This document shows, in pieces, positions 1,531 to 19,516 of a DNA stretch of 20,000 nucleotides. Made by a program: the position numbers and the translations under genes. The stretch lies in the IMG/VR virus record IMGVR_UViG_3300027749_000091. The stretch is one strand, 5' to 3'. The notes beneath the pieces are model-generated. The model was not told the origin of the DNA. It saw only the letters and a list, made by a program, of their open reading frames with translations, and did no database searches. Each line of letters opens with the position of its first letter. The stretch's first letter is position 1. The stretch comes from an uncultured virus (IMG/VR IMGVR_UViG_3300027749_000091) (taxonomy: Duplodnaviria > Heunggongvirae > Uroviricota > Caudoviricetes).

Positions 1531-1959
1531 CTAAGTTATGCTAATTGTTACACTACCTACCTGCCCATAGCCTTTTAAATCGTCTGGCGTTAGGGGATTA
1601 TCAAATAATTTTGATCCACCAACTGGATTCCAATTCCACTGAAACACCCTACTACCCATATCTGGTTCACCAAACCCATAAACCCCGGTGCCACCGTTAA
1701 TATTAATCTGCAACCCGTTAGTACCTGACTGCTGATAACTTACATCTGGTCTTGGATCCCGTACTGCTTGTGGATCATCGACCGGGTACATACCTAATTG
1801 CAACTGCGGCTGGTCTGGGTCCCAACAGCTTGGACATACCTTGATATTATATAGTTTAGTTTTGAGTACTTGCTTTTTTAATTCCTTTAGCTTGAACTGT
1901 TGTCCACAACGATCACAGATTGAAATTGCCCATTTCCCGCTTGCGTATTTAGAGGGCAT
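1531..1959 (-). CDS. Phage protein with putative zinc-binding CxxC...CxxC
   Basis: 142 aa; CDRC and CPSC motifs followed by WDPDQPQL and DPQAVRDPRPD. Confidence 0.75.
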   Translation of the reverse strand: MPSKYASGKWAISICDRCGQQFKLKELKKQVLKTKLYNIKVCPSCWDPDQPQLQLGMYPVDDPQAVRDPRPDVSYQQSGTNGLQININGGTGVYGFGEPDMGSRVFQWNWNPVGGSKLFDNPLTPDDLKGYGQVGSVTISIT

Positions 1960-2617
1960 TTAGATCACCTATACATTCTGGGTATCGCCTCGCATATTCT
2001 GTTGTCCAGCTAGTTCCATAGTTACGTTTCATGTTTGATATTCTACCTGCTTTGCGCCGATTTTCTACTTGTTCTGGGGTACATTTATGCCCTTTGTTGA
2101 AAGCTTTTCCTTTTCTTGCGGCAACTGCATTTGCCCTATATTCTGGTGTAGCCCACAGTTTTTTAGTTCTTTCTGAGCGTTTTATTTTTTCTCCATCAGT
2201 CATTGATTCTTGAATGGCTTTGGTTACTTTTGCTCTATATTCCTGCTCAGACCACAGCCTAACGGATGCTTTTCCTACTTTAATTTTATGCTCATTGGAA
2301 ATTGTAGAGCCAAGCGGAATTCCTGCATAGGCGCTTTTTGACTGGTTATATTTAGGATTTAATTTTTTCATAGCTAGCTGTTCATAATCGCGCATTTTTT
2401 CAGGAGAACAAACTAATAAAACCTTAAATTCAAACGCACTTTTTCCATATTTAGTCCAAGCATTTTGTAAATAACTATTTTGATGACTTTGGTTATTTAG
2501 TGCTGACATATGCTGTTTATATCTTTTATTAATTTTTTTAGATGAGCCAATATACTCATTACCAGACTCAATATGTCTAATAACGTAAACGCCAGAGTTT
2601 TCTAGTCCAGTAAACAT
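1949..2617 (-). CDS. Free-standing GIY-YIG homing endonuclease
   Basis: SGVYVIRHIESGNEYIGSS-x5-RYKQH, HQNSYLQNAWTKYG, conserved Glu (YEQ) and Asn (KYN); basic C-terminal region with two W-x3-EYR repeats. Start moved to ATG 2617, 1 nt after the upstream stop. Confidence 0.9.
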   Translation of the reverse strand: MFTGLENSGVYVIRHIESGNEYIGSSKKINKRYKQHMSALNNQSHQNSYLQNAWTKYGKSAFEFKVLLVCSPEKMRDYEQLAMKKLNPKYNQSKSAYAGIPLGSTISNEHKIKVGKASVRLWSEQEYRAKVTKAIQESMTDGEKIKRSERTKKLWATPEYRANAVAARKGKAFNKGHKCTPEQVENRRKAGRISNMKRNYGTSWTTEYARRYPECIGDLNAL

Positions 2618-2618
2618 A

Positions 2619-3539
2619 TCAATAAAACATCTGTCTTGGTACAAATCTAATCGCAGCCTTTTCACGGTCTTCATCAGCCGCTAATTGAAACTGCTGCTCA
2701 TAATCCGCCTTTAATGCCATTACTCTATTTGGGTCTACTTCTGGCTTTTTCATAGCAATATAGTATGCTAATCCTGCAACCATGCAAGGTAAAAAACGAA
2801 AAGGAATGTCTTGTTCTGTAACACCATTACCGGCATCTTGAAGTCGTCTTAATCTCCAGTACACAAACATATACTGACTTCCCGGTGAATTCGGTGTAGG
2901 CCAGACATTAATGCTAGGTAGGTTAGACGTATAAACTGTTGTAGTTACTAAATGACTAGTTGCTGTAGTACCGTTTTGGCCCCTAGCGCAGTTAATTAGT
3001 TGGTTTCCGCTAACGTTGGCGTAGTAAATTGTTTCTGTGTTTAAATTAATAAACCCATTAGAAGCTACTTGTGTTGCATCACTTACATCAATAGTAGTTG
3101 CTGAGGAGGTTATATTAGCCGTTAAAACAGCCGTGGTAGGGTTTGTTTGGCCTGTCTGACGGTTGATCCACACTTGTATCGGACGGCCCTGTGTAAGCTT
3201 ATTTGGCAGTGTTGAATAGGTAGACTCAGAAATACGGGTAATGTTAATGTCAATCTGATTAGATGTGCCGTTGTTTGTACGGATTACTTGGTCTAATAGG
3301 TCAATGGTATCAACAGGAAACGGATAAGCGGCTTGCCCAGTAACCATAGGGATTTGGCCTTGCTCAATAGTCCAGAGATTAATGCCCCGGTTTGCCCATT
3401 CAATTGTTAATAAATTTAAAGACCTACGGGCGGTACGCATGTCATAACCCGTGCGCAGCTCTAAGCCAGCCCGCTCAAATGCCTCTTCAACTAAGTCGTT
3501 GAGGTCTAGGTTAAATGCATTAGTACCTGTTGTTGTCAT
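2619..3539 (-). CDS. Putative head-tail connector / tail tubular protein with an inserted beta-rich domain
   Basis: 306 aa; LVEEAFERAG...ARRSLNLLTIEWANRGINLW N-terminus, GRPIQVWINR, VWPTP, and CMVAGLAYYIAMK C-terminus resemble podovirus connector proteins. Confidence 0.6.
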   Translation of the reverse strand: MTTTGTNAFNLDLNDLVEEAFERAGLELRTGYDMRTARRSLNLLTIEWANRGINLWTIEQGQIPMVTGQAAYPFPVDTIDLLDQVIRTNNGTSNQIDINITRISESTYSTLPNKLTQGRPIQVWINRQTGQTNPTTAVLTANITSSATTIDVSDATQVASNGFINLNTETIYYANVSGNQLINCARGQNGTTATSHLVTTTVYTSNLPSINVWPTPNSPGSQYMFVYWRLRRLQDAGNGVTEQDIPFRFLPCMVAGLAYYIAMKKPEVDPNRVMALKADYEQQFQLAADEDREKAAIRFVPRQMFY

Positions 3540-6641: not shown

Positions 6642-6709
6642 GCATATAAGATCAGCTTATCAATCAATATGCTGTCTGCCGGGACAGTTTGATAAGCCGG
6701 TTTTCCCGG
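6642..6709 (-). ncRNA. Structured, probably pseudoknotted 5' leader RNA (candidate Polynucleobacter-1-like motif)
   Basis: 9-bp perfect stem (6655-6663/6689-6697) plus crossing 6-bp pairings 6679-6684/6704-6709 and 6642-6647/6667-6672. Family assignment is from memory only. Confidence 0.6.
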
Positions 6710-6717
6710 TTTATACG

Positions 6718-6745
6718 ATCATACTACATTTTAAATTTTGTGCAA
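6718..6745 (-). promoter_or_regulatory. Sigma70-type promoter TTGCAC-N16-TATGAT
   Basis: Lies between the capsid terminator and the structured leader; predicted start about 6711. Confidence 0.6.
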
Positions 6746-6753
6746 GTATTTAC

Positions 6754-6786
6754 AAAAGAAAAACCCCGCCTTTTGAGCGGGGTCTT
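6754..6786 (-). terminator. Rho-independent terminator after major capsid gene
   Basis: Minus strand ACCCCGC-TCAAAAG-GCGGGGT followed by TTTTCTTTT. Confidence 0.85.
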
Positions 6787-6808
6787 CGTAAGTCTTATAT
6801 AAGACTAA

Positions 6809-7717
6809 TTAAGCACCAGCAGATCCAAACATACCAAGAGGATCAGACCAGCCAAAGCTATAACGCTCACGTGACTTGTAGCGGACATTGCCCGTGTCGA
6901 AGTCGCCGTCCATTGACTGAGCCAAAGGCGAGCGCACAAAGTGCTTCATACCGTTTGGAACGTCCGTGGTCAAGAACCAACCATTGGTGTCGGTCAAGAA
7001 ATGGTTAATGGTGTAACCTTCCGAAACAGAACCGTTGTTCTTAATTGCGTTGATATCATTGTCGTTTGTACCAACACGCAATTCAGTTTCGAGCAAGCGA
7101 GTTGCAACGAATTGGAGTGCAGGAGGAACAATCAACTTCTTAGGTTTGGAAGCAATTAACAAACCACGCTCATCCGTCCACAAGCTAATTTGAATAACGG
7201 CGGCTTCTAAAGAAGTCTCGTTTAAGTCAGCAGGGGTTGAAGGAATGTTGCTGTTAACACCGCCGTTTACCAATGGGTGTGATGCGCTGAATAAAGGAAC
7301 GCCGTCGCCACCGTTATAGCCAGTAGTGAAACCGTTGTTTAATACAGCAGCAGCTTTAACCTGTTTGGTATAAGCCATAGCACGAGCTAAGGACTTGGTG
7401 TAGCGAGCTGATAAAGAATCATAGAGGTTATCTTCGATTGCTTCTTCAGTTAAGCTAAAGCCAAGGGCAATAGTTTCGTGGTTGTAGCGAGCTGTCCATG
7501 CTTCTTGAGCATTGTCATAAGCGATGGCAGAACCTTCGTTTTTAACAGGTGCAGCAGAAAAGCCAGAAAGCTTTGTTTCTTCTTCGAAAGAACGCTCTGA
7601 GGTCTCAGTTTCGTAGATCTCTTTGTGTTCTTCACCGTAGCGAGCATACTCTAAACCGAACAATGCATTCAGTCCGGGGAGCAACTCTTTCAGTAGTTGT
7701 GCGCGTGAAATAGCCAT
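6809..7717 (-). CDS. Major capsid protein (HK97 fold, Mu gpT-like family)
   Basis: 302 aa; MAISRAQLLKELLPGLNALFGLEY, TEEAIEDNLY, GGDGVPLFSASHP, PKKLIVPPAL, RERYSFGWSDP; followed by a terminator; AGGAG RBS. Confidence 0.92.
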   Translation of the reverse strand: MAISRAQLLKELLPGLNALFGLEYARYGEEHKEIYETETSERSFEEETKLSGFSAAPVKNEGSAIAYDNAQEAWTARYNHETIALGFSLTEEAIEDNLYDSLSARYTKSLARAMAYTKQVKAAAVLNNGFTTGYNGGDGVPLFSASHPLVNGGVNSNIPSTPADLNETSLEAAVIQISLWTDERGLLIASKPKKLIVPPALQFVATRLLETELRVGTNDNDINAIKNNGSVSEGYTINHFLTDTNGWFLTTDVPNGMKHFVRSPLAQSMDGDFDTGNVRYKSRERYSFGWSDPLGMFGSAGA

Positions 7718-7729
7718 TTAATTAGCTCC

Positions 7730-8356
7730 TTAAACGTAATTCTGGGCCGCAGCCAACAGAATTTGGGGGTTAGTGAACTTCACGATAACTTCCGTGTAGG
7801 CGTTTGAGCCAGAGGCTGTTTCAGGAACTACTGCAATCACACGAACAGGTGCTGTCGCTGCGTTACCGCTACCAACTACGGGAGCAATAAGCGAAACGGC
7901 GGAATCACCAGTAGTGGATGATCCTGTACCTTGACGTAGAGTTTGATTAGTACCAACAACAGACGAGTTAGCTGTAGTAATAGTAGTGTTACCAGAATAG
8001 GTAATAGCTACTTTAAAAGCTGCCATAGGATCGTCAACAACATAAGCAACAGCAGAAGTAGCAGCAGCATTACCGGGGTAATATTGAGCTTGAACTAGCT
8101 GACTTTGACTATTAACGTACTGAACACCCATAAACACACCATAAGTTAAGTTAGCGGTATTGTCTGTGGTTGAATCTACAGTAACGTTAGATTTAATAAC
8201 ATTGCCACCTTTGATCATAACTACGTCACCGTTGTAAATCGCAGTGTTATAAGTACTGGCGATTGGTAGTTGACGTGTAGCCCCAGCATAGGGCATAAAG
8301 TCAGCACGGTTAACGGGGACTAGACCATAGGGAGCAGAAACGGTTGGATAAGCCAT
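7730..8356 (-). CDS. Putative capsid decoration/cement protein
   Basis: 208 aa; APYGLVPV, TAIYNGDVV, GVFMGVQY, AYVVDDP; directly upstream of capsid gene. Confidence 0.65.
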   Translation of the reverse strand: MAYPTVSAPYGLVPVNRADFMPYAGATRQLPIASTYNTAIYNGDVVMIKGGNVIKSNVTVDSTTDNTANLTYGVFMGVQYVNSQSQLVQAQYYPGNAAATSAVAYVVDDPMAAFKVAITYSGNTTITTANSSVVGTNQTLRQGTGSSTTGDSAVSLIAPVVGSGNAATAPVRVIAVVPETASGSNAYTEVIVKFTNPQILLAAAQNYV

Positions 8357-8378
8357 TTAAATCTCCTAGATATAAAAA

Positions 8379-8828
8379 TTAAGAACCTTTACCAAAGCTC
8401 GTCGAGGATTTTCGCTCTGAAAAGAGAGGCATCCTTGGGTCACTTTGGCGCATAAGATTATTATCTACAGCTTCCGTTTGGGCTTGGCTTTGCTTCGCAT
8501 AATGCGCGTTGCGTTGCTGGACAAACTCAGTCGGAGTCTTGCAAAGTAATAATCCACCAATCTCAATATTGTCCTTAAAGCGACTATTGGGATCGATTAA
8601 GAGTTGAAATTTAGGTTGTTCTTCGACTCTAACGGGTTCCCAACCTTCTCTCAGTTTTGCTGAAAGATTGCGAGGATCTGCTACGTTTAGGTTCGAGACA
8701 CGAATCCATCGATACGAAAAACCAGCCTCTTTGTCAGGCTCAGGGAGCAATTCAGGTTGCGACCACTCTGTAGGTCGCTCATAAGTTGCACGGGTTTCTA
8801 CATCACGTTTTGTTCTTACTTCAGCCAT
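8379..8828 (-). CDS. Conserved head-module protein of unknown function
   Basis: 149 aa; YRWIR, LREGWEPV, IEIGGLLLCK motifs; lies between scaffold and decoration genes. Confidence 0.75.
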   Translation of the reverse strand: MAEVRTKRDVETRATYERPTEWSQPELLPEPDKEAGFSYRWIRVSNLNVADPRNLSAKLREGWEPVRVEEQPKFQLLIDPNSRFKDNIEIGGLLLCKTPTEFVQQRNAHYAKQSQAQTEAVDNNLMRQSDPRMPLFSERKSSTSFGKGS

Positions 8829-9798
8829 TTTGGGCCTCCAATTTAGTTAGTTCACGGGCATATTGCTCAGGGGTCAGTCCTAGTTTTTTAGACAAGAGAA
8901 CTTGCGTTTTGCTCAGACGTACTTTTTTAGGAGACGTACTGCGCGTTGCTGGCGCTACTACCGTGCTAGCTTTTGGTCGATTTTCCTTTACAGGTTCATC
9001 TTCCGCGTCGTTAGTATCCTCGAAATTTTCGGGGAATCGTTTACGCATTGTGTTATCAATGCGGTTGTAGTACTCATCAGATCCAGCCGATACACCACTG
9101 CGAACTAACTTTTCATGCAATCCTAGAGCAAGACTGGTCATTTCTTCATCTTGACCAAACCAATCATTTCGTTTTTGCCAGCTTACTGCTTTATGATCGG
9201 GCGTTGTTACTTGCTGATTATTGCTTTGTACCTCGTTTTTCTCTTCTTGTAAAGCTTTTTGATAAACGTGCTGATAATTCTGCGCTTTATCCATCCGCAA
9301 ACTAGCTGCGGTCATTTTTTCCTGAGCTTCTAAAAGCTTGTCTGCATCGCCAGATTCATACGCAGACTTGAATTCAGCTTTTGCCATATCCATTTCTCGC
9401 GCTGTAGCCTGTTTTACTGTGTCAACATAGGCTGTTTCACCGTTGGAAAGGCGTTCTTTGAGGGTTTTATTCTCATCCATAAACCTTTTTGCAACGCGTA
9501 CAGCCTCTTGTTGCTCACGTAAAGCAGCTTCTTTGGCTCTACGTTCGTCATGCCAGACCTTTTTAAGCTGTTTTAGCTTGTCTTTAGCTTCTTCTTGGTA
9601 CTTATCTAGCTCGGTTTCTTCCAATTCCTTAACAACTGATGGATGTAAGTTCTTACGATCACGATCAGCGGGTGGGGTATCGTCTTCAATCTCGATATCT
9701 ATGTCAGATTTAGCTTCAACTTCAGGTTCTGGTGCTTTTTTCTCTTCTATTTCGTCAGGAAATTCAAATTCTTCCATCTCTTGTTGATTTTCAGCCAT
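8821..9798 (-). CDS. Putative capsid scaffolding protein
   Basis: 325 aa; acidic N-terminus, long coiled coil, C-terminal KKLGLTPEQYA helix-turn-helix; position between portal and capsid genes. Confidence 0.75.
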   Translation of the reverse strand: MAENQQEMEEFEFPDEIEEKKAPEPEVEAKSDIDIEIEDDTPPADRDRKNLHPSVVKELEETELDKYQEEAKDKLKQLKKVWHDERRAKEAALREQQEAVRVAKRFMDENKTLKERLSNGETAYVDTVKQATAREMDMAKAEFKSAYESGDADKLLEAQEKMTAASLRMDKAQNYQHVYQKALQEEKNEVQSNNQQVTTPDHKAVSWQKRNDWFGQDEEMTSLALGLHEKLVRSGVSAGSDEYYNRIDNTMRKRFPENFEDTNDAEDEPVKENRPKASTVVAPATRSTSPKKVRLSKTQVLLSKKLGLTPEQYARELTKLEAQNG

Positions 9799-9808
9799 TT
9801 TTTACTCC

Positions 9809-10219
9809 TTAAGCGCGTTTAATGCCGCGAGGATCCTGAACTACGGATTCTACGGAATCGTCGTTGATCAATCTGAATTCACGACCATGAATTAAGAGGC
9901 GTGTTCCAGCGTTTGGTCTAACAATTACAAAGTCGCCCTGCTTACACCAAGGACCCGTAGGGAATCGCTTGTCGTCTTTGTAACAATCAGGCCCCAAATG
10001 AACCACGAATAGGACTGTTGCCAGCTTTTCTTCGAAATTAATGGTGTCGCTAGACTTTAATATGCCACTTTCATACTCTTCTTCAGCCTCTGGGATAGCG
10101 CATAGGATGCGATATCCTGAAGGAATGGGAAGTTGTCGTGCTTTTTCATCTGCTTCTTTGTTGAGTAATGCTGATAAATCTACCGCCCTACCTAAATCTA
10201 CTGCCGTTTGGTCACTCAT
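9809..10219 (-). CDS. groES: Phage-encoded GroES/Cpn10-like co-chaperonin
   Basis: PSGYRILC, mobile-loop-like ESGILKS, VVHLGPD, KQGDFV, GTRLLIHGREFRLINDDSVESVV match the Cpn10 pattern; start 10219 has a GGAG RBS. Confidence 0.85.
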   Translation of the reverse strand: MSDQTAVDLGRAVDLSALLNKEADEKARQLPIPSGYRILCAIPEAEEEYESGILKSSDTINFEEKLATVLFVVHLGPDCYKDDKRFPTGPWCKQGDFVIVRPNAGTRLLIHGREFRLINDDSVESVVQDPRGIKRA

Positions 10220-10406
10220 CCGAGTTCTCCACGTTTTTTGCAAGGTCTGCGATAAAAAGACGTGCGGTCAACAGACCCTGAACTTCACCACACATCTTTT
10301 GGTAGTCGGAATAGTCTTTAGCTGCTCCTGTACCAAGGGATTCCTGCAATCGTTGAACTTTGTCATCTATCTTTTCAGTTAAATGATTAAGCGCTTTTTC
10401 TAACAT
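10212..10406 (-). CDS. Small helical protein downstream of portal
   Basis: 64 aa; DYSDYQKMCGEVQGL motif; GAGG RBS. Confidence 0.75.
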   Translation of the reverse strand: MLEKALNHLTEKIDDKVQRLQESLGTGAAKDYSDYQKMCGEVQGLLTARLFIADLAKNVENSDE

Positions 10407-10408
10407 CG

Positions 10409-12895
10409 TTAACCTCTATTCGTTTGTTTGGACATCATTTGGTTGTGCTTGGCAATATCCACTCCAAGTTTGTTTGCTTCCGTTGTTGATTTAGACATAA
10501 GTCTTGCAGCTTCAATTTCGCGTTGAATTTGTAGATCTGCATTGTCTTTTTGTGCTTTAGCGTTTATTTGCATTCCCGCTATACGTTCTTGTGATGCGAT
10601 TCTTTCTTGCTCAATAGCCATTTGTTGTGCTTTAGCCTGCGCATCAGACTGTGCTTTCATTTGCTTAGTTTGAGCTTCTTGAGCCTTGATTTGTAATTCC
10701 GCTTGCTGAATTTGAATCAATGGATCTTGTGCTGCTTGTTGTGCTTGTTGCGCTGCAACAGCCGTCTTGTCAATTTGCAATAATTTCTGTGCTGCGGGCG
10801 CGGCTAATCTAGCAATCTGAAGTTCTATCTCTTCTGGTAATTCATAGTCTTCTTCTTCGCTATAAGGAATTGGAACGCCAATCATTTCTTCCATCTGTCT
10901 ACGATATGCGTAACCTAAATGCTCTTGAATGTGAGCCATTAAAGAATTCATAATCATTTGAGCTTGTGGGTTTTGACCAATCGTTTGCATGATTTTTGGA
11001 TCTTGCATTAGCGCTAGATGCACTGCAATATGGGCATCGTGATCTTGATATAAGAAAGCCTTTAGGGGTTTACCCTTAAGGTTATCCATGTTCTCCGTAA
11101 TTGGATCGCGCGGTTTTTGATCATCTGGTAAAGGTACTAACTTAGCTGCGTCCTTGATTCCTAAAACATCTAACATCTGGCGATGCAACAAAGGCATGTT
11201 GTAAAGTTGTGGCGCTGATTGAGCTAATTGAAGAGCAGCTTGATACTGCATAATCTTTTGGCTCATCGTAGCTGCATTTGGATCGGATACTGGAATAACT
11301 TCTACATCGTCATAGTCCGATTTTTTAGCCTTACGGTCACCTTCTGCTGGGTCATATGAATACTCTTCAGGGGTGTAATCTGCAATAATAGTCTTTAGTA
11401 ACTTAAACTCACGCTTCATTGAATAATGAATACGGGCTTGTACGGCAGACATCACTTTTAAAGTTCTTTCCAGAATAGCAAGGGTTGTTCCTACCGGGGT
11501 ATTCCCTGACATATCTGCAACTTTAAGATCGGCAGCAGAAGCAAATCTGCGGCCTTCATCTACGATCTTATCTAACAACCCAGCCAGAACCATTGATGGC
11601 TCTTTGTACGGCAGGGTCATAATGTTGTCTTTCATCGTACCGCTTGGTACATCAACGTCGCGGAATTCTCCGGGCGCTATCGGTGTGTCGTCTCCTTTAA
11701 CACGCAAGCCACGGGTCTTAAAGCCACCCGGCAGGTTTGAAAGTGACCCTGCATCAACAAGCTGGCGGAGGATACTAGTGCCTGACTTAGCAAAAGCCCC
11801 GATAAGATGAATGAGACCAAAACAATAAAAGCCAAAACCGGGAATATAGCCGTAATGAACAAAGTGCTGACGTTTCTTATGAGTTTCATCATCTGGGTTC
11901 CAATTTCTCCTGATTGCCAAAACTGAATTGCTACCTTTTTCAATGGTTACAACATAAGGTAAAGCAATCCCTGTAGGTTCTCCATCTTCATCTTCATGCT
12001 CGTAACCTTCTAAGTCAAGGTCAACGTGCATTTCCAAAACTTTAAATCTGTCATCTGAAGTCGCTCTAAAACCAAGCTTCTCTGCAATTTTCTTTTCTAC
12101 TTCATCTAATACGTTGTCTGGTTCACCTAAGTCTATGTCGCGGTAAAATCCGGCAACTTGAAGTTTGCGTAGTTCATTTTCGCTTTTGCGCATAACGTGG
12201 GTAACACGCTCTGCTGATTCAAGACTGGAGGCGCCATAAGGAACCACCATATCTTCAGCAGGAACATACATAGCGACTTGCCGTTGAAGACTTGGATCGT
12301 AATAGATTTTCTTAAATGCGTTACCTGCAATACCCAAGCCCCAGAGTAAACGCTCTTGCTCAGGACGATATTCCTGCATTACGTCTGTTAACTGGTAGTT
12401 CATATCCGCTTGAACACGTTCAGCGGCAGCTTTCTTTTCAGGTGTTTCCTTGCCGATAATCTGAGTCTTTACGGGACCAGAGGCTGGAAACGTTTCCATA
12501 ATGGTTTCTGATTGGAACTTAACGACTGCTTCAGAAAGCAGTGGGTGATAAACACCACAGGCTCCGGGCCACGGTTCCATGCGGTCTTCAATCTTCATGC
12601 CTAAAAGCTCTAGGCCGTCTACATAAGCCTGAATCCAATCTCTACGCGAGGCGATATCCGAATCAAAATCGCCAATTAAATCTCCAGCAATTTCAGTTAA
12701 AGTGCCTTCACTTAAGTACTCCGCTAGGTTAGCGCCAAAGTCTTGATCGCTTTCCTCTTCTGGCTCTAGGGTAATCTCTAACCCATCTATACCAATAGTT
12801 AATGATTCTGGATCTTCAACTTCAATATCAATGGCGGGTTCCTGTGATGAATCCATGCCTTCGGGTAGTTGGTATAGTGCTTTTTCAATTGCCAT
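10409..12895 (-). CDS. Portal protein
   Basis: 828 aa directly after terL; PWPGACGVYHPLL, GNAFKKIYYD, Gln-rich C-terminal coiled coil like the barrel of P22-type portals. Confidence 0.88.
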   Translation of the reverse strand: MAIEKALYQLPEGMDSSQEPAIDIEVEDPESLTIGIDGLEITLEPEEESDQDFGANLAEYLSEGTLTEIAGDLIGDFDSDIASRRDWIQAYVDGLELLGMKIEDRMEPWPGACGVYHPLLSEAVVKFQSETIMETFPASGPVKTQIIGKETPEKKAAAERVQADMNYQLTDVMQEYRPEQERLLWGLGIAGNAFKKIYYDPSLQRQVAMYVPAEDMVVPYGASSLESAERVTHVMRKSENELRKLQVAGFYRDIDLGEPDNVLDEVEKKIAEKLGFRATSDDRFKVLEMHVDLDLEGYEHEDEDGEPTGIALPYVVTIEKGSNSVLAIRRNWNPDDETHKKRQHFVHYGYIPGFGFYCFGLIHLIGAFAKSGTSILRQLVDAGSLSNLPGGFKTRGLRVKGDDTPIAPGEFRDVDVPSGTMKDNIMTLPYKEPSMVLAGLLDKIVDEGRRFASAADLKVADMSGNTPVGTTLAILERTLKVMSAVQARIHYSMKREFKLLKTIIADYTPEEYSYDPAEGDRKAKKSDYDDVEVIPVSDPNAATMSQKIMQYQAALQLAQSAPQLYNMPLLHRQMLDVLGIKDAAKLVPLPDDQKPRDPITENMDNLKGKPLKAFLYQDHDAHIAVHLALMQDPKIMQTIGQNPQAQMIMNSLMAHIQEHLGYAYRRQMEEMIGVPIPYSEEEDYELPEEIELQIARLAAPAAQKLLQIDKTAVAAQQAQQAAQDPLIQIQQAELQIKAQEAQTKQMKAQSDAQAKAQQMAIEQERIASQERIAGMQINAKAQKDNADLQIQREIEAARLMSKSTTEANKLGVDIAKHNQMMSKQTNRG

Positions 12896-12903
12896 AGTTT
12901 TTC

Positions 12904-14391
12904 CTAGTAATACGCGGTTTTGCGTCTAAAATCAATCGGTTCATCTTCTTCGTCCGTGGGTAAACGGATAAATCCACCCTTTCTAAAACGAATCAGACAC
13001 ATAGTCGAGGAGTCAACTAAGTCATCGTGGTCAGAATTTGGAAAGGCTGCCATCTCTTCAATCACTTCTTCTGCCCACCTTTTTCGAGGCGCCCAGACTT
13101 TTCCGGAAGCAAACAAGTCCGTTACCGAATTCATACGCGTGATCTTATCATTACCACGAGTAGGTGTAAACTCTGATACGGGTATACCCATGCGTCTTAA
13201 CTCAAATATAAGAGGGCTTCCTGAAGCTTTCGCCTCTACGATAAACGCATCGGGTTCCCATTCCTTATACATTTGATAGGCTCTTTCCTTTAATTCAGGG
13301 AATTCTAGCCGTTCTTTAAAGGCGTCCAAAAGAATAACGTGGGCATCATTTTCGTTTTCATTCATAAAGAAAACACCCCAAGTTGTACAGGCTGAATAGT
13401 CTGAACGCTCATTCTTGGTAAAGGCGGTGTCCCAACCTTGGATAATAAACTCGCATTTTGGTGGTCTTTCATTCTCCCAGACTTTCCACCATTCCCGTTT
13501 AACTAATGCGCCCTCTTCTGAGGTCGGCTGTTGTTGGTACTGGGCGTTCCACTTGGCAACTGGTAGTTCTTCCTTTAAGGCGAGGAGTTCTGGCAAAGGC
13601 CAAAAGGCTGGCCACAAAGGCTCATGGTTTGGCAATATTGCAGGAAAGTCAATTACTTCCCATTCGTCGCCATCTCTTTCAATTGATGCTTGGAGGATTT
13701 TCCCCGTTAAATCCCGCTTACTCCAGCGGGTCATTACGATAACAATCGCACCCCCTGGTTGAAGACGCTGTCTTGGACCAGACGAATACCACTCATAAAC
13801 TTTATCGTAAACCTCTGGATTTGTGGCTGCTATCGCCGCCTCTTGTTCCGAGTGAGGATCGTCAATAATGAGCAAATCCGCTCCTTTACCGGTAACAGTA
13901 CCGCCAACGCCAATAGCAAAGTAGTCCCCGCCGCCAGAAGTACCCCAGCGCCCAGCAGCCTTACTATCAGATTTAAGAGAGACATTTGGGAATATCTTTG
14001 CATACTGATCACTTCCTACCAAGTTACGAACTTTACGACCAAAGCCCACAGCGAGTTCAGCCGTGTTCGAGCATTGGATAACTTTTCTGTCAGGATATCT
14101 GCCCAGATACCACGCAGGAAGCAAGTAACTAGCAAATTCAGACTTAGTATGACGGGGAGGCATATTAATAATAAGACGCTTGCAAGTTCCATTGGCTATC
14201 TCCTCAAATTTATTTGCCATTACCTTGTGGTGGGCGCCATTAATGAATCCGGGCCACATTTGGCGGGTGTATGTCATAAAGTCTTTTTGGGATTTTTCCC
14301 GCCCTAAAGATGAAATATAGTCTTTAGCAAACTCATAGAACGCATCTTGTTCTAACTCAGGTAGCTGGTTAACGATACTTTCTATGTCCAT
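12904..14391 (-). CDS. terL: Terminase large subunit
   Basis: 495 aa; Walker A region INMPPRHTKS, Walker B LLIIDDP, VMTRW coupling motif, nuclease residues WDTA, VEAKASG, HDDLVDS. Confidence 0.95.
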   Translation of the reverse strand: MDIESIVNQLPELEQDAFYEFAKDYISSLGREKSQKDFMTYTRQMWPGFINGAHHKVMANKFEEIANGTCKRLIINMPPRHTKSEFASYLLPAWYLGRYPDRKVIQCSNTAELAVGFGRKVRNLVGSDQYAKIFPNVSLKSDSKAAGRWGTSGGGDYFAIGVGGTVTGKGADLLIIDDPHSEQEAAIAATNPEVYDKVYEWYSSGPRQRLQPGGAIVIVMTRWSKRDLTGKILQASIERDGDEWEVIDFPAILPNHEPLWPAFWPLPELLALKEELPVAKWNAQYQQQPTSEEGALVKREWWKVWENERPPKCEFIIQGWDTAFTKNERSDYSACTTWGVFFMNENENDAHVILLDAFKERLEFPELKERAYQMYKEWEPDAFIVEAKASGSPLIFELRRMGIPVSEFTPTRGNDKITRMNSVTDLFASGKVWAPRKRWAEEVIEEMAAFPNSDHDDLVDSSTMCLIRFRKGGFIRLPTDEEDEPIDFRRKTAYY

Positions 14392-14615
14392 TACTCGATA
14401 TTCCTAATCCTAATATAAGACGGTCTAATGCTTCTCGCCCGATTAGGAAGACTCTTGCAGTGTCCTAAATCACATAACTGTTTCATAGCACGATGCACAT
14501 TGCCCCGCCCTCTGTCACCAGTAAACTTCATAATGTCATCTATAGAGGGAGCAAACCCAAACTTTCTCCACCATTCGTCTATAGCCATATAGATCTGCTT
14601 TTGCTTCTCGGTCAT
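14391..14615 (-). CDS. LexA-like winged-helix DNA-binding domain, lacking the peptidase domain
   Basis: 74 aa; TEKQKQIY...GFAPSIDDI...LCDLG...PNRARSIR aligns by eye with the LexA N-terminal domain (TARQQEVF...GMPPTRAEI...LARKG...SGASRGIR). Confidence 0.8.
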   Translation of the reverse strand: MTEKQKQIYMAIDEWWRKFGFAPSIDDIMKFTGDRGRGNVHRAMKQLCDLGHCKSLPNRARSIRPSYIRIRNIE

Positions 14616-14785
14616 TCTTTACACCGCTTAATTAAGGCTTCCGTATGAAGCTCGGCAGAGGCTTGGTTTCCAGCTTCCATTTTCTGATGTAGGTTCAACA
14701 TTAAGCTAACAAACGATAGTTCATCTAACAAATCTATGTAGAGAGTCTGTAACTCATCATAAGACATATCGTTGTAATTTATCAA
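14612..14785 (-). CDS. Small acidic hypothetical protein (57 aa)
   Basis: Not in ORF track. TTG start; MINYNDMSYDELQTLYIDLLDELSFVSLMLNLHQKMEAGNQASAELHTEALIKRCKE; ATGA overlap with the LexA-like gene. Alternative ATG start at 14767. Confidence 0.65.
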   Translation of the reverse strand: MINYNDMSYDELQTLYIDLLDELSFVSLMLNLHQKMEAGNQASAELHTEALIKRCKE

Positions 14786-14796
14786 AATATACCCCC

Positions 14797-15609
14797 CTAC
14801 CCTTTTTCACCAGAAATGATGACGGGGGGGTCTTCACATGAAAGAACTTTCATATGATCTTGGGAATTTGTACCCCCCTCCCCCTCTTGTTTCCAATCGG
14901 TATGGGGGACATCGTCTAGATCTGCTATTGGTTTGTCTGGAATACTATGTGTATTCTGAGCGGTACTATTTTTTAAAAAGGGGGTGTCGGGAGTGGGTGG
15001 GGCAGCGGGTTCAGCCTTACGCTTAAGGGCTGGCTTTGAGATCAGGGCGAGCAATTCGTCCGCATCATCCATCCCGCTAGCATCTATCGTCCGCATATTG
15101 TCCGCAATCGCCCGCTTAAGTTGCGCCATCATATCGGCTCGAGCGGTGTCGCTATCCTTGATGACTCTTTGCTCGCTGATGTGTAGGAATGCATCCACGC
15201 CAGCAACTGTGCCAAGCGCTTTCAACGCAGTGAGTCTAGATGCGGGGGGATTCTCCTCGTTAAGCGCCTCTTTTGTTAGTTGCGATACGACCAATGCCCT
15301 CAATTGAGCGGTTGTATGCGATGTTTGGAACGCAATAGCCCTTTTTATAGCCTCTATTTCCAATTGTATTACCTCATTGCCTTTTAGCTTGCTTGCCCGA
15401 TTCCCAGCGACCTTTGGTTTCACAGGTGTCTTGCCTTTCCTATATGCCTTACGATAAGCCTCAGCCCCTGTATCTCCATGAGCCACATTCTTAGCAAACT
15501 GTTGTTGCTTGTGGGTTAATGCTCTCTTCTCAATCCCCATTACATCTTCGAAAGGAACTTGGTCGAGGCTTTCTCTCATTTGCTTTCTTGTTAATCTAGC
15601 GATCTTCAT
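14797..15609 (-). CDS. terS: Terminase small subunit with long disordered C-terminus
   Basis: LTHKQQQFAKNVAHGDTGAEAYRKAY HTH and SRLTALKALG oligomerisation helix; upstream of terL. The track start at 15651 lies inside the -10 element, so 15609 is preferred. Confidence 0.75.
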   Translation of the reverse strand: MKIARLTRKQMRESLDQVPFEDVMGIEKRALTHKQQQFAKNVAHGDTGAEAYRKAYRKGKTPVKPKVAGNRASKLKGNEVIQLEIEAIKRAIAFQTSHTTAQLRALVVSQLTKEALNEENPPASRLTALKALGTVAGVDAFLHISEQRVIKDSDTARADMMAQLKRAIADNMRTIDASGMDDADELLALISKPALKRKAEPAAPPTPDTPFLKNSTAQNTHSIPDKPIADLDDVPHTDWKQEGEGGTNSQDHMKVLSCEDPPVIISGEKG

Positions 15610-15646
15610 GTCTTGGGTATAAGTTGGGAATCTGCAAAATAGGGTA

Positions 15647-15675
15647 ATCATACCATTAACTGTATATCCGTACAG
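15647..15675 (-). promoter_or_regulatory. Promoter for terS operon (CTGTAC-N17-TATGAT, with TGn extended -10)
   Basis: Minus strand CTGTACGGATATACAGTTAATGGTATGAT. Confidence 0.6.
15660..15675. promoter_or_regulatory. LexA (SOS) box, beta/gammaproteobacterial type
   Basis: aaCTGTatatccgtACAGta versus consensus taCTGTatatatatACAGta; intergenic and overlapping a promoter. Confidence 0.8.
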
Positions 15676-15908
15676 TAAAAAAACGCATTCTCGTGCCTTG
15701 CTTTACTTTCCTCTTGTATCTTCTCCTTGTGTATTGCTCTCTACTGCACAAGATAAGCTGACCATTCGGCAATATGGCGGGCTTTTAGTTTTTAGTGGTC
15801 GGCAGCAGAACTTCCGGAATCCTGGAAAACCGCCAAAGTTTATTAAGCCCAATGTTTATAAGGGCTTGACCTTTGTGTGATGTAATAACCCCACAGTTCT
15901 ATCTGTTA

Positions 15909-15938
15909 TTGTACAAATTGCAAAAATTAGATTAAGAT
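15909..15938 (+). promoter_or_regulatory. Candidate rightward early promoter TTGTAC-N18-TAAGAT
   Basis: AT-rich, about 45 nt upstream of the first plus-strand ORF. Confidence 0.35.
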
Positions 15939-15982
15939 CTATCTATGGCATTCAGCCATTACACCTTGAGGAGGGTTAAAGC

Positions 15983-16183
15983 GTGCGATTCAACAAAGAA
16001 AATATGAAAGCTCACATAGTAAAAGAGCTAATTTACCTTGAGAAAAAATGGGGTTTTGACCCCAGAAATGGATACGATCAAGTAAAGGATAGTGATCTTT
16101 ATCGGGTCATGGCTTACGGAGAATATAAGGCTTTAAAAAATTTGTGGGATGCAATTGAATACAACAACATTGGAGAAGAATAA
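15983..16183 (+). CDS. Early-region hypothetical protein
   Basis: 66 aa; GTG start with strong GAGGAGG RBS. Confidence 0.8.
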   Translation: MRFNKENMKAHIVKELIYLEKKWGFDPRNGYDQVKDSDLYRVMAYGEYKALKNLWDAIEYNNIGEE

Positions 16184-16185
16184 TT

Positions 16186-16521
16186 ATGAACATCACAACA
16201 AGCGAGCCAATTTTAGGAATGACCCCAGATTATAAATGGGTCATTGTCATGCCTGATGGTAAGAACTATAAAAAGTCATTCAGTCCAGCGTATGACTTGA
16301 AGTTTCTTGATTTTGAACAGGCTAAATATTTTCTATCCAATATGGAATCAAAAAAGAAACATAAGGTAAAAATTAGCCTTGAGATTGAATTAGAGGTTTC
16401 AACAGATTATTTTGAGAAGTTATGCGATCAACTCTCTTTGGAGGTTGTTCGTAATTGTTTTAAAAATCACAATCGCACCATTAATTCAGAATCAATGACC
16501 ATTATCAAGGAGGAAGTATGA
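16186..16521 (+). CDS. Early-region hypothetical protein
   Basis: 111 aa; GGAG RBS; ATGA overlap downstream. Confidence 0.75.
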   Translation: MNITTSEPILGMTPDYKWVIVMPDGKNYKKSFSPAYDLKFLDFEQAKYFLSNMESKKKHKVKISLEIELEVSTDYFEKLCDQLSLEVVRNCFKNHNRTINSESMTIIKEEV

Positions 16522-16817
16522 CTTATAAAAACGAATTTTCGGATTTTGCTTACGATTTGCCCAATTTGGGCGATGGCTGGGAGGATAACTCTTGGCATAA
16601 CGATTCTTGTCCATCCTTAGACTATCCGCTAGGCGATGGCAAGATGTTGCGCATTTGGTTTCAAGAATCTAACCCTGAAGAGCGGGAATGCGGGGGCAAG
16701 CAGTTTGTTTTAGTAATTGGTGAATATGGCGATTCTGATCATCTTATGGAATCGGACGATTTAGACGAAGTTTTAGCTTATATCAAGGATCACAATTTAA
16801 CTAAGGAAAAATCATGA
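16518..16817 (+). CDS. Acidic early-region protein
   Basis: 99 aa; AGGAGG RBS; WEDNSWHNDSCPS motif. Confidence 0.8.
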   Translation: MTYKNEFSDFAYDLPNLGDGWEDNSWHNDSCPSLDYPLGDGKMLRIWFQESNPEERECGGKQFVLVIGEYGDSDHLMESDDLDEVLAYIKDHNLTKEKS

Positions 16818-17278
16818 CTACATATGCAATTTTTAGCAGTAAACATGACTCTGAAATATGGGTCAATCTTAAGGTCGGAACGCTCGAAAGCATGGAGACA
16901 GTTCGGGAATTAGTTATAGAAGAGATGAACAACGATCCAAGCCTTGAGCGTGGATATGTTGAATCCTATCCATTCTTTCAAGCTGATTGGGTAGTAATGG
17001 GCGGAAGAATAGAGACTCCCTTTGATTTCAATCAGATTTTAGAAGTAGAAAACGATCATGGTACTTTTGAAGAATCAAAACAATTTGAATGCTTTTGGGG
17101 TGATGGTTATCGGGCTGACGATAACAAATCTATTCTCGCTTATTACGATCAGGACTTTTTCAATCAAGATCGGGGATATGGGGAAATGGAATGCCACATG
17201 ATTTCCACTTTAGAAAAAGGCGATAGTTTAGATATTAGCGATGTAAGTGGTCATCATTGGGTAAGGCGGATTAAATGA
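16814..17278 (+). CDS. Acidic early-region protein
   Basis: 154 aa; ATGA overlaps on both sides; Asp/Glu-rich. Confidence 0.8.
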   Translation: MTTYAIFSSKHDSEIWVNLKVGTLESMETVRELVIEEMNNDPSLERGYVESYPFFQADWVVMGGRIETPFDFNQILEVENDHGTFEESKQFECFWGDGYRADDNKSILAYYDQDFFNQDRGYGEMECHMISTLEKGDSLDISDVSGHHWVRRIK

Positions 17279-17487
17279 AAATCTATTACGCACACGCACA
17301 GAGTCGGAATTTTGATTTCCAAGCCTTTGGATTGACTTATAACGAGGCGATTAAGACTCTTCATAAAGGGCTTAAGAAACACGCTAAACAATACAACCTA
17401 GAGCCGAAATGGTTCGAGGAATGGGCGGATATAAGGGTGGAAGAACTAGAGGGGGGCATAGCTTATCGAGATCGCTCGCCACTATAA
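17275..17487 (+). CDS. Early-region hypothetical protein
   Basis: 70 aa; ATGA overlap; stop abuts the hammerhead. Confidence 0.8.
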   Translation: MKIYYAHAQSRNFDFQAFGLTYNEAIKTLHKGLKKHAKQYNLEPKWFEEWADIRVEELEGGIAYRDRSPL

Positions 17488-17537
17488 GCAAGTCTGATGA
17501 GGCTTTATTAGCCGAAACCCCGAAAGGGGTCATTTGC
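17488..17537 (+). ncRNA. Type I hammerhead ribozyme
   Basis: Stem I GCAAGU/AUUUGC, core CUGAUGA (17494-17500), stem II GGCU-UUAUU-AGCC, GAAA (17514-17517), stem III CCCC-GAAA-GGGG, GUC cleavage triplet (17529-17531). Confidence 0.93.
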
Positions 17538-17560
17538 AAACAACCAAAAGAGGAAACAAA

Positions 17561-17851
17561 ATGGCACAGACTCAAATTTTCAGAGGCGTTGAAACGACCA
17601 CCTATTGCGACCAAGATGGGGCGCTTGTGGGTGTATATCGGGGGACTCCTGTAGTTCGCCAACTAGGGAACAAGATCACGCTTAAAACGGGCGGTTGGAA
17701 GTCTCGCACCACTAAATTAAGAATGAATCAGTTCTCTAGATCTTATTGTCAAAATCGGTTCGGGGTAACTCAAGAAAATTATGAATGGTTTTTAATTCTT
17801 AATGATCAAAAAATCCCGTTTGATGGCGATCAGATCTCTTTCGAGGTGTGA
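17561..17851 (+). CDS. Phage protein with GGWxxxTTKxRxN motif
   Basis: Start moved to ATG 17561 with GAGGA RBS; MAQTQIF...TGGWKSRTTKLRMNQ. Confidence 0.8.
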   Translation: MAQTQIFRGVETTTYCDQDGALVGVYRGTPVVRQLGNKITLKTGGWKSRTTKLRMNQFSRSYCQNRFGVTQENYEWFLILNDQKIPFDGDQISFEV

Positions 17852-17854
17852 TCT

Positions 17855-18019
17855 ATGAAGATTTATTACTATTGCGGAATCACTCGACAAGAGCGGGTTT
17901 TACACGCAAGCAAACATTTTGCAAAAGATCAGGCATTTTTTTGGGGCTACCTTGAGCGGTTAGGGGATAGCTTACATTTAATCGAACTAGATGAGGGGGA
18001 AACATGGGCTACACCATAG
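17855..18019 (+). CDS. Hypothetical protein (54 aa)
   Basis: Not in ORF track. MKIYYYCGITRQERVLHASKHFAKDQAFFWGYLERLGDSLHLIELDEGETWATP; GAGGTG RBS. Confidence 0.7.
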   Translation: MKIYYYCGITRQERVLHASKHFAKDQAFFWGYLERLGDSLHLIELDEGETWATP

Positions 18020-18162
18020 ACGATCTATTTATCTCTGTTAATGATATATACGAACAATACGACGAGGGCGAGATTCCGTTGGATGAGGCTAACGACATCT
18101 TAAAACGATGTTGCGAGTCCTTTATTCAAGCGCTAGAGGAAAAGGCTCGCTTGGCAGCATGA
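18004..18162 (+). CDS. Small acidic protein (52 aa) ending in LAA
   Basis: Not in ORF track. MGYTIDDLFISVNDIYEQYDEGEIPLDEANDILKRCCESFIQALEEKARLAA; GAGGGGG RBS. Confidence 0.7.
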   Translation: MGYTIDDLFISVNDIYEQYDEGEIPLDEANDILKRCCESFIQALEEKARLAA

Positions 18163-18165
18163 ATT

Positions 18166-18325
18166 AAATTTAGCCTGAAAAATCTCAGATTTGGGATTTT
18201 TTGGAGTAAGTTTTTTGTTTTTCCGTTTTCTAGTGCGTAGTAATACGCCAAAAAAGGCCAGAACCAGGCTTGAGGCGGTATTTTACTGGTTTCCGGATTG
18301 TAATTCGTAGCACAAGGCTAAATTT
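18166..18325. repeat. 11-bp inverted repeat enclosing several hairpins
   Basis: AAATTTAGCCT (18166-18176) and AGGCTAAATTT (18315-18325). Confidence 0.75.
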
Positions 18326-18339
18326 TAAAAGGAGGAGTC

Positions 18340-18507
18340 ATGCAAAAGAAGTGGTTTGATATTTTTTTTAAAGGCGAGTACTTAGGCGCTATGTTTTTGC
18401 CAGCGTCTAAACCAAAAGCAGTGCAAGAAGTGTGTAATAGGCTTGAAAAAACAGGCTTGCAGTATGTTTCATCAGATTTTTTACTAAAAGAAATGGAGAA
18501 AGTATGA
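18340..18507 (+). CDS. Hypothetical protein (55 aa)
   Basis: Not in ORF track. MQKKWFDIFFKGEYLGAMFLPASKPKAVQEVCNRLEKTGLQYVSSDFLLKEMEKV; AGGAGG RBS; ATGA overlap. Confidence 0.8.
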   Translation: MQKKWFDIFFKGEYLGAMFLPASKPKAVQEVCNRLEKTGLQYVSSDFLLKEMEKV

Positions 18508-18716
18508 AATATAAAGTATATCTAATTGACAAAACTTTAGAGGCAGATACGCCTGTTGATTTGCACAACTTAGTATGGGATTGGCAAATCGACCACCAAA
18601 TATCGGAGGAAGATTGGACTAGCCCAGCAGTCTGGTTCGGTAATGAAGTAATAGGCGTAATTAATTACAACGGGAGGATATGTGCTGAACAAGAGAGAAT
18701 TAAGCAAAAAGGCTAA
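18504..18716 (+). CDS. Hypothetical protein
   Basis: 70 aa; GGAG RBS; IGVINYNGRI motif. Confidence 0.75.
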   Translation: MKYKVYLIDKTLEADTPVDLHNLVWDWQIDHQISEEDWTSPAVWFGNEVIGVINYNGRICAEQERIKQKG

Positions 18717-18876
18717 TGCCATGAAAGACGTTCAAGAATCAATTGATTACTTAACCGCAAAGAAAGAGGAGTACTCAGGGATTGCCCTGGCTATTGTAGA
18801 AAAACATTTAGGTTATGCTTTACTTAAAAAGGAGGAGTTATGCAAATCAACAGAGAATACTTTATCAACCAAATAG
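18682..18876 (+). CDS. Hypothetical helical protein
   Basis: 64 aa; GTG start after GGAGG; fills the gap between neighbours. Confidence 0.6.
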   Translation: MLNKRELSKKANAMKDVQESIDYLTAKKEEYSGIALAIVEKHLGYALLKKEELCKSTENTLSTK

Positions 18877-19079
18877 AACAATATCTACACACAATGGAGA
18901 AAGATGAGATGAAACCATATGCCGTCAAGGTTAGCTACAGAGGAACAAAATATTATTATTTAGATGCGCCCGATGAGTGCGAGGCTGAAGAAATAGCTTG
19001 CGAGATGTTTGAGAGTGAGTTTAAGCTAGATAATGTTGAAACAGAAGGCTATGCCGAGGGAGACAGTGACGATGAATGA
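18840..19079 (+). CDS. Acidic hypothetical protein
   Basis: 79 aa; AGGAGG RBS; very acidic C-terminal half. Confidence 0.75.
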   Translation: MQINREYFINQIEQYLHTMEKDEMKPYAVKVSYRGTKYYYLDAPDECEAEEIACEMFESEFKLDNVETEGYAEGDSDDE

Positions 19080-19152
19080 CGAACTTAAGTTGGAAGATGT
19101 AGTCTGCGTATTTTTATTTGGCCTTTTTGTTGTAGCGTGGTGCTTAGTATGA
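19072..19152 (+). CDS. 26-aa single-pass membrane peptide
   Basis: Not in ORF track. MNDELKLEDVVCVFLFGLFVVAWCLV; GGAG RBS; overlaps both neighbours. Confidence 0.6.
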   Translation: MNDELKLEDVVCVFLFGLFVVAWCLV

Positions 19153-19331
19153 GGCTATTACACGATAGAAACGAACTTATCCATACGGTTGAAAGATTGG
19201 AGGATAAGGGCGGTTTTGCGGTATCATTGGGTAAAGCTGCATTATTGGCTGACGATGACAACCTAAAGATACTTGTAAAAGCGTTCCCCGCTATATTCTC
19301 AACAAGCAATAGCATAAGGCTAATTAAATGA
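19149..19331 (+). CDS. Hypothetical protein
   Basis: Start placed at ATG 19149 (ATGA overlap); GGFAVSLGKAALLADDDNLKILVKAFP motif. Confidence 0.7.
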   Translation: MRLLHDRNELIHTVERLEDKGGFAVSLGKAALLADDDNLKILVKAFPAIFSTSNSIRLIK

Positions 19332-19516
19332 ATGCAGTCATTATCTATCTAAAAGACGGTAAAAACGGCAAAGTAGAGCTTTCTATGGAGCTAATCGGCG
19401 ATCCTGGTCAGTCTTTTTTGGTAGGTAATGCTGTAGTAAACAACCTTGTGGATTTAAATAGCGTTGTTTTCGCTAATAATGAGTTTACCCAGAGACCGCA
19501 TGACCGATTGCAATAA
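19328..19516 (+). CDS. Hypothetical protein
   Basis: 62 aa; ATGA overlap; last gene of the plus-strand array. Confidence 0.6.
   Translation: MNAVIIYLKDGKNGKVELSMELIGDPGQSFLVGNAVVNNLVDLNSVVFANNEFTQRPHDRLQ

Follow-up and report, generated by a model that had tools for sequence, protein, structure and literature searches.

Phages usually sense their host's SOS response through a repressor of their own or through a LexA-controlled antirepressor; in coliphage 186 (Tum), N15 (AntC) and Gifsy, such an antirepressor inactivates the phage repressor. To our knowledge, a switch in which LexA directly controls virion genes has been worked out for a single Bacillus tectivirus. The locus considered here raises the question of whether the head and packaging genes of a tailed phage may be placed under host LexA in the same direct manner. 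It lies in a 20,000-nt stretch of DNA from an uncultured member of the Caudoviricetes (IMG/VR record IMGVR_UViG_3300027749_000091), the whole of which is called the window below. An earlier note had pointed to a CTGT-N8-ACAG box combined with a TGn-TATGAT element facing terS, the gene for the terminase small subunit. The sequence is as it was described, 15647–15677 running from the -10 hexamer to 2 nt beyond the box.

A LexA-type box within a predicted terS promoter

The elements upstream of terS are as follows.
15660..15675, no strand assigned: LexA-type SOS box CTGTATATCCGTACAG; 20.4 bits with a matrix built from relatives only, same place in 13/13 close relatives
15647..15655, minus strand: extended -10 element TGG-TATGAT, called from the sequence; TGnTAnnnT is found 4–8 nt past the box in 14/14 box phages (the window and 13 relatives)
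15610..15646, minus strand: 37 nt from the -10 element to the ATG (leader of ~30 nt), with TATACCC 8 nt before the terS ATG

The box has perfect CTGT-N8-ACAG arms and forms, with its flanks AA...TA, a 20-mer at 15658–15677. Past the box, the minus strand reads TTAA (15659–15656), TGG (15655–15653) and TATGAT (15652–15647), after which come the 37 nt and the terS ATG at 15609. Transcription of terS is predicted to start near 15640, which would place the box at about -37 to -22, over the -35 position and the upstream spacer; because of this location, a bound LexA dimer would block RNA polymerase. The terS promoter is absent from the list produced by a simple sigma-70 scan of the window because its -35 is poor, and the call is based on the TGn extended -10 and on the conservation of that element. 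The 373-nt gap at 15610–15982 is a divergent control region between the minus-strand terS block and small genes on the plus strand, and the promoter of the terS unit must therefore lie there. Rfam gave no match in the terS intergenic region. A terS start at the ATG at 15651 was rejected, since this codon falls within the -10 and the alignment of the relatives begins at 15609.

At the place expected for a Shine-Dalgarno sequence, 7–10 nt before the terS ATG, the window carries TATACC(C) (15618–15624, minus strand). By eye, the same motif recurs there in L007, L008, L018/L023, L030, L037 and L038 (7/14 box phages), and another subgroup of relatives has TGTTCCCGTCC at this position. The first gene of the next operon (15983) is preceded by a normal GGAGG.

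Compared with the 16-mer SOS consensus, the box matches at 13 of 16 positions (3 mismatches), its CCG centre being the poorest part, and it is single, with no tandem partner. A match with at most three mismatches to that consensus was obtained in 17/200 shuffles of the window, so that the box of the window alone is weak evidence. The CTGT-N8-ACAG pattern is seen twice in the window against 0.20 expected; the second copy, at 6672–6687, has a G+C-rich centre, forms a hairpin in a leader and was rejected as an SOS box. The weight matrix, built from the boxes of relatives only, gives the terS box 20.4 bits, and the best sites in shuffles of 37.9 kb (the window joined to the overlapping contig G002) reach 16.7 bits at the 95th percentile and 19.7 bits at the 99th.

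Conservation of the box among relatives

A terL search yielded 80 IMG/VR loci at 63–82% identity, of which 20, those with the N-terminus of a terS homologue and upstream DNA, were evaluable; L001 and L002, identical across the promoter, were left aside as uninformative. No close DNA relatives were found in the searched phage collection, and G001, the record nearest to the window, does not include this region. The earlier note had proposed to scan the terS upstream regions of related phages and had named absence of the box from close relatives as evidence against its reading. The box was present before terS in all 13 evaluable relatives with 77–82% identical terL, at 56–98 nt from the terS ATG; it is perfect in 12 of them and has one arm mismatch (CCAG) in L038. 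The terS proteins of these relatives are only 40–65% identical to that of the window, and the conserved box is therefore a phylogenetic footprint rather than the result of recent copying. Over the 20 loci (139,991 nt), 15 perfect boxes were counted, 14 of which sit 56–116 nt upstream of terS, a spot that makes up roughly 2% of the 140 kb, and three reversed or permuted control patterns gave 0–1 matches.

The search had selected the arms of the box; its centre (A-T-A-T-A-T-A), flanks and -10 were not selected. In the box-anchored alignment, the only columns rich in information are those of the box, of its A/T flanks and of the TG/-10 element; the content is about zero from -40 to -3, the flanking regions sharing no sequence among relatives. 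The TGnTAnnnT element is spaced exactly 6 nt from the box in 10 of the 14 box phages. The clade consensus drawn from the unselected inner columns and flanks, aCTGT[A/G]nAtATATACAGt, is that of an E. coli-type SOS box. Paired LexA sites are typical of tightly repressed SOS promoters; a second LexA-like site lies 17–19 or 32 bp upstream in 6 of the 14 box phages, all six being relatives.

The box is absent in all seven more distant evaluable relatives (terL 67–72% identical), in which the best matrix scores range from -7.5 to 9.4 bits, as compared with 17.9–26.8 bits in the box clade. By eye, these phages have ordinary -35/-10 pairs upstream of terS. LexA control is thus dispensable for phages of this kind, since 7 of the 20 relatives have promoter-like sequences of the ordinary sort and no box. 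The box clade may represent one inheritance event; its flanking sequence has nonetheless fully diverged. CTGT-N8-ACAG did not occur at all in four complete relatives totalling 240 kb (HTVC027P, HTVC023P, DSL-LC04 and 023Pt_psg01; terL 50–58%), and the alphaproteobacterial pattern GTTC-N7-GTTC gave one match in these four genomes, no more than a control pattern.

Other motifs were observed around terS in single relatives. Over 160 kb of loci, GTTC-N7-GTTC has just two occurrences (L004 1097–1111 and L005 1994–2008), each within the terS leader and downstream of the CTGT box; a near copy is present in L006 and none in the window. In the box-less L040, L042, L048 and L056, TTGAC-n-GTCAA palindromes are found upstream of the ordinary -35/-10 pairs before terS, and L048 also has a repeated 17-mer upstream of its pair. 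The palindromes may be sites of another regulator or back-to-back -35 elements.

The transcription unit behind the box

The genes downstream of the predicted promoter are listed below.
14797..15609, minus strand: terS, terminase small subunit, 270 aa (phrog_51, E 1.1e-07); start conserved among relatives
14612..14785, minus strand: 57-aa ORF, no family match, poorly conserved in relatives
14391..14615, minus strand: mini-LexA, 74-aa winged helix-turn-helix protein (PF01726 below cut-off, phrog_3502, structure matches)
12904..14391, minus strand: terL, terminase large subunit (phrog_38, E 1.1e-108; PF17289)
10409..12895, minus strand: portal protein (phrog_1216, E 1.1e-26)
6809..10406, minus strand: 64-aa ORF, GroES-like ORF, three head-region ORFs and major head protein (phrog_3188, phrog_28737, phrog_36003, phrog_371)
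6809..7717, minus strand: major head protein, last gene before the terminator
6759..6787, minus strand: intrinsic terminator, 12-pair stem and T-run, ranking first among the terminator-like sites of the window

The stop codon of the mini-LexA gene and the start of terL overlap by 1 nt. The boxed transcription unit likely ends at the terminator at 6759–6787, and because this terminator is strong, the boxed promoter probably serves no more than the genes from terS to that of the major capsid protein. The proposal that the box sits on the promoter of the packaging and structural operon thus holds for a conserved operator-like element, but with a unit narrower than that wording implies. On the 3′ side of the terminator, promoter-like hexamers and two leader hairpins were noticed, one of the hairpins being the second CTGT-N8-ACAG. 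As a terminator and then promoter-like hexamers follow each other within 6672–6787, the genes below 6645 may have a LexA-independent promoter of their own.

On the plus strand, 15983–19516 holds small genes without known function, on which a primase gene converges. A homing-endonuclease-like ORF of the GIY-YIG type (1949–2674, minus strand; phrog_314) lies among the structural genes. No tRNA was found in the window.

Late-gene timing and phage lifestyle

The explanation that we consider probable is that the box is a host-LexA operator in the extended -10 promoter of the head-and-packaging operon and that SOS induction is used as a clock for the late genes. A LexA dimer on the box would keep RNA polymerase off the sigma-70 extended -10 promoter of the operon, which would comprise terS, the 57-aa ORF, the mini-LexA gene, terL and the portal gene, on to the major head gene. 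Early and replication genes would be expressed first. Phage replication and recombination intermediates would then activate RecA, the signal normally coming from the infection itself, and RecA filaments would cause LexA to cleave itself and the terS promoter to open. SOS would in this way delay the head and packaging genes until phage DNA synthesis.

No integrase or CI-type repressor was detected in 100 ORF queries of the window plus G002 (12 + 55 + 33), nor in 55 of the 62 ORFs of contig G003. Judging by G003, tail, lysis and internal virion genes are to be expected in the ~20 kb of the genome outside the window plus G002. The cultured relative HTVC027P, whose terL is 54% identical, is described as obligately lytic and as up-regulating host recA, lexA and umuDC during infection (PMC12753301). 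We favour the SOS-gated timer because no lysogeny genes were found and because this cultured relative is lytic and induces host SOS genes. A host repressor acting on the head genes of a lytic phage would be a cost unless infection reliably induces SOS, and such induction is known only for this distant relative, in another host.

The main competitor is a dormant element, maintained as an extrachromosomal prophage or in a carrier state, in which host LexA would silence the late genes, and perhaps the replication genes, until DNA is damaged. The Bacillus thuringiensis tectivirus GIL01 works in this way: its late promoter carries LexA boxes, and it encodes a truncated homologue of LexA (PMC6182141). 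The lack of an integrase and a CI-type repressor in the searched ORFs has the look of a LexA-dependent prophage devoid of its own repressor, and the phage encodes a ParB-like protein (phrog_1033, E 3.7e-18).

Additional boxes also bear on this point. Contig G002 overlaps the window over 7,364 nt with 1 mismatch, and three sites stand out in the combined 37.9 kb under the relatives' matrix: the terS box (20.4 bits) and sites of 26.5 and 19.2 bits. The 26.5-bit box lies 18 nt after the rusA stop codon (G002:C1:12656-12671; L107 1501-1516), upstream of ParB-helicase-methylase-primase genes. It recurs in G003 (G003:C1:26962-26977; L105 1501-1516), where it was located by pattern search and where terL is 77% identical. 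In both contigs a conserved AGGGT-nn-ACCC palindrome adjoins the box, and a hairpin with a T-run comes after the box. Across 302 kb from 80 rusA-bearing phage loci, only the phage's own two copies of this box were found. This second conserved box, close to replication genes, points towards a dormant element, as does the ParB-like gene. The third box (19.2 bits; G002:C1:18980-18995, L109 1501-1516) is not conserved in G003; it is found 19 nt into an ORF of 99 aa that has a signal-peptide-like start and occupies part of a 620-nt gap preceding the genes for a PD-(D/E)XK exonuclease and a Sak-like annealing protein.

Several observations nevertheless make dormancy a minority possibility in our judgement. 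The nearest cultured relative is reported to be obligately lytic (PMC12753301). There is no box near the divergent early genes at 15983–19516, the terS site being the only good one in the window. Among 16 loci on genome contigs, mostly short MAG contigs from mixed phyla, there was no case of a relative integrated into a genome or carried as a plasmid.

In the operon divergent from rusA (G002:C1:13689-18810), sugar- and modification-type genes were observed: an alpha-1,3-fucosyltransferase-like gene and genes of the radical SAM/SPASM, FkbM-type methyltransferase, family 2 glycosyltransferase and Anp1-like glycosyltransferase kinds.

Which protein reads the box

The earlier note had drawn attention to a mini-LexA two genes after terS and had connected it with the box. 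The protein exists, at 14391–14615 on the minus strand. It matches Pfam PF01726 (LexA_DNA_bind) with E 5.8e-04 and 20.0 bits, under the gathering cut-off of 23.7, over residues 1–61 and profile positions 4–64 of 65. With a profile made from 20 homologues, the top nine solved structures are all LexA (E 0.0012–0.0079), and residues 2–64 align without gaps to LexA 5–67. The AF2 model (pLDDT 85.4) consists of three helices and a two-strand wing only, and its best Foldseek matches are LexA N-domains (TM 0.76–0.78). As judged from profile and model, the 74-aa protein is a genuine LexA-type winged helix. It ends at residue 74, without the C-terminal S24 self-cleaving dimerisation domain of LexA; a homodimer prediction, run without controls, scored 0.00 and gave no verdict.

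Host LexA would be the simplest reader of the box, because the clade consensus is, flanks included, that of an E. coli-type SOS box. We consider it unlikely that mini-LexA reads the boxes, alone or in competition with host LexA, although this would give the phage autonomous control over its late genes, by autoregulation or through a latch that excludes LexA. The LexA-type winged helix and the position of the gene inside the operon under the control of the box speak for such a role. So does a difference in the recognition helix: residues 41–42 are [H/Q]-R in 14/14 box phages, and S-R, K-K/R or S-E in 12 loci without the box. The box-less L014 and L056 equal the boxed L004 and L005 in overall similarity (55% against 55% and 51%), yet differ from them at residue 41. 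The split in helix and box coincides with the terL phylogeny (77–82% versus 63–72%), however, and therefore counts as a single event.

The box fits the consensus of host LexA, including flanks and A/T centre, and mini-LexA lacks the LexA dimerisation domain. Residues S39, N41, A42, E44 and E45 of E. coli LexA, which reportedly contact bases (3JSO paper), are replaced by G, G, N, H and R in the ungapped alignment with mini-LexA. In L018, moreover, the near-invariant N39 of mini-LexA is changed to H and the boxes are unchanged. In GIL01, the site of the truncated LexA is distinct from the LexA boxes (PMC6182141). A mini-LexA gene also immediately precedes terL in 12 loci that show no box; in 7 of these the terS upstream region can be checked. 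The suggested link between mini-LexA and the box is thus unproven, since the protein is also encoded by box-less relatives and differs from LexA at the recognition-helix positions.

Lastly, a chance match, or a structural element without regulatory role, is a scarcely credible account of the palindrome: shuffles do give sites of equal quality (17/200) and the other CTGT-N8-ACAG, at 6672, is merely a hairpin, but in 13/13 close relatives the box is kept at the same place beside a conserved TGn -10 amid unalignable flanks, 14 of the 15 boxes in 140 kb are concentrated in roughly 2% of the sequence, and terS identities of 40–65% argue against the regions being recent copies of one another.

Clues to the host

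LexA sites of the CTGT-N8-ACAG form are used by beta- and gammaproteobacteria in general, and we infer that the host group bears a LexA of the beta/gammaproteobacterial type. The pattern is the E. coli LexA motif, other bacterial groups having other motifs (PMC8565304). The idea that the box constrains host taxonomy accordingly appears reasonable, and it finds weak side support in a structured RNA of the same phage. A full-length match to Rfam RF02932 (Betaproteobacteria-1 RNA) is present at G002:C1:12242-12366 (minus strand; 90.1 bits, cut-off 49.4), about 24878–25002 in window-plus-G002 coordinates and outside the window, and another at G003:C1:27530-27655 (plus strand; 87.2 bits, cut-off 49.4). 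The RNA lies in the ~450–550-nt non-coding gap from rusA to the ParB-like gene and stands behind the conserved element TGATACACT. As a pointer to the host it is weak, because in one sampled order it was found in 1 of 151 genomes, and that match was not in a prophage. The 16 genome-contig loci with relatives give no host call either, because the MAG bins span many unrelated phyla. The 24 sequencing runs with matching DNA were all DNA samples of freshwater or aquatic origin.

Comparison with known systems

If host-LexA control of the head and packaging operon were confirmed, a simple sequence mark would be available to predict when such phages make particles, their burst timing in nature would be tied to DNA damage, for example by UV light or antibiotics, and the possible hosts of an uncultured phage group would be narrowed down. 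It would also offer a second independent case in which to study the role of truncated LexA copies in phages. It is tempting, if tentative, to go one step further and suppose that a clade of repressor-less lytic freshwater phages times its head and packaging genes by infection-induced LexA cleavage, mini-LexA being an uncleavable relative that latches the promoter open or re-tunes SOS promoters late in infection. Should both the SOS clock and this reading of mini-LexA hold, they would amount to a principle of late-gene timing not described for lytic tailed phages.

The antirepressor switches of 186 (Tum), N15 (AntC) and Gifsy share with the present phage a host SOS box on a phage promoter. They differ in what lies behind it: here terS (phrog_51) comes first, and the searched ORFs included no phage repressor. 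Colicin operons likewise have LexA sites, often two, over the promoter of genes that end the life of the cell (PMC6182141). The colicin delay needs additional host repressors (PMC6182141), and a second repressor site was not identified here.

Related complete genomes are those of HTVC023P-type podoviruses (the Pelagibacter phages HTVC023P and HTVC027P, together with DSL-LC04 and 023Pt_psg01), which have 50–58% identical terL and related head and packaging genes. In HTVC027P, HTVC023P and 023Pt_psg01, the annotated terS lies 3–5 kb from terL, with several genes between. The words 'LexA' and 'promoter' are absent from the genome paper on the HTVC023P type (PMC9599517). In the literature searched for late promoters of virulent phages that carry LexA boxes, GIL01 was the only relevant case; descriptions of boxes so placed in lytic tailed phages, or in this phage group, were not found.

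The circuit had been called possibly undescribed in the earlier note, a claim that cannot be upheld in view of GIL01, whose late promoter P3 carries tandem LexA boxes and which encodes a truncated LexA, gp6, besides the LexA corepressor gp7 (Fornelos et al. 2018, PMC6182141). Both phages have host LexA boxes inside a virion-gene promoter (here a predicted one), neither has a CI-type repressor (here, in the searched ORFs), and both encode a protein of ~70 aa that corresponds to the LexA DNA-binding domain without the cleavage domain. The tandem arrangement of P3 recurs in six relatives among the 14 box phages; the box of the window is single.

The present phage differs from GIL01 in being tailed, at about 60 kb and of the HTVC023P kind, and in having an extended -10 promoter whose box is of the proteobacterial type. 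Its mini-LexA is encoded between terS and terL, within the boxed late operon, whereas that of GIL01 comes from the early region. In GIL01, gp6 is made early and activates P3 from its own, distinct site near -43.5 (PMC6182141); in the box phages no conserved element is found between -40 and -3, counted from the box. A lytic lifestyle is probable here, in contrast to the temperate, LexA-maintained switch of GIL01. The comparison therefore suggests that the logic of GIL01 recurs, with strong comparative support, in a new setting: tailed, probably lytic, lake-abundant phages with a proteobacterial-type operator. What appears to be new is the type of phage, the type of operator, the type of promoter, the position of the mini-LexA gene and, probably, the lifestyle.
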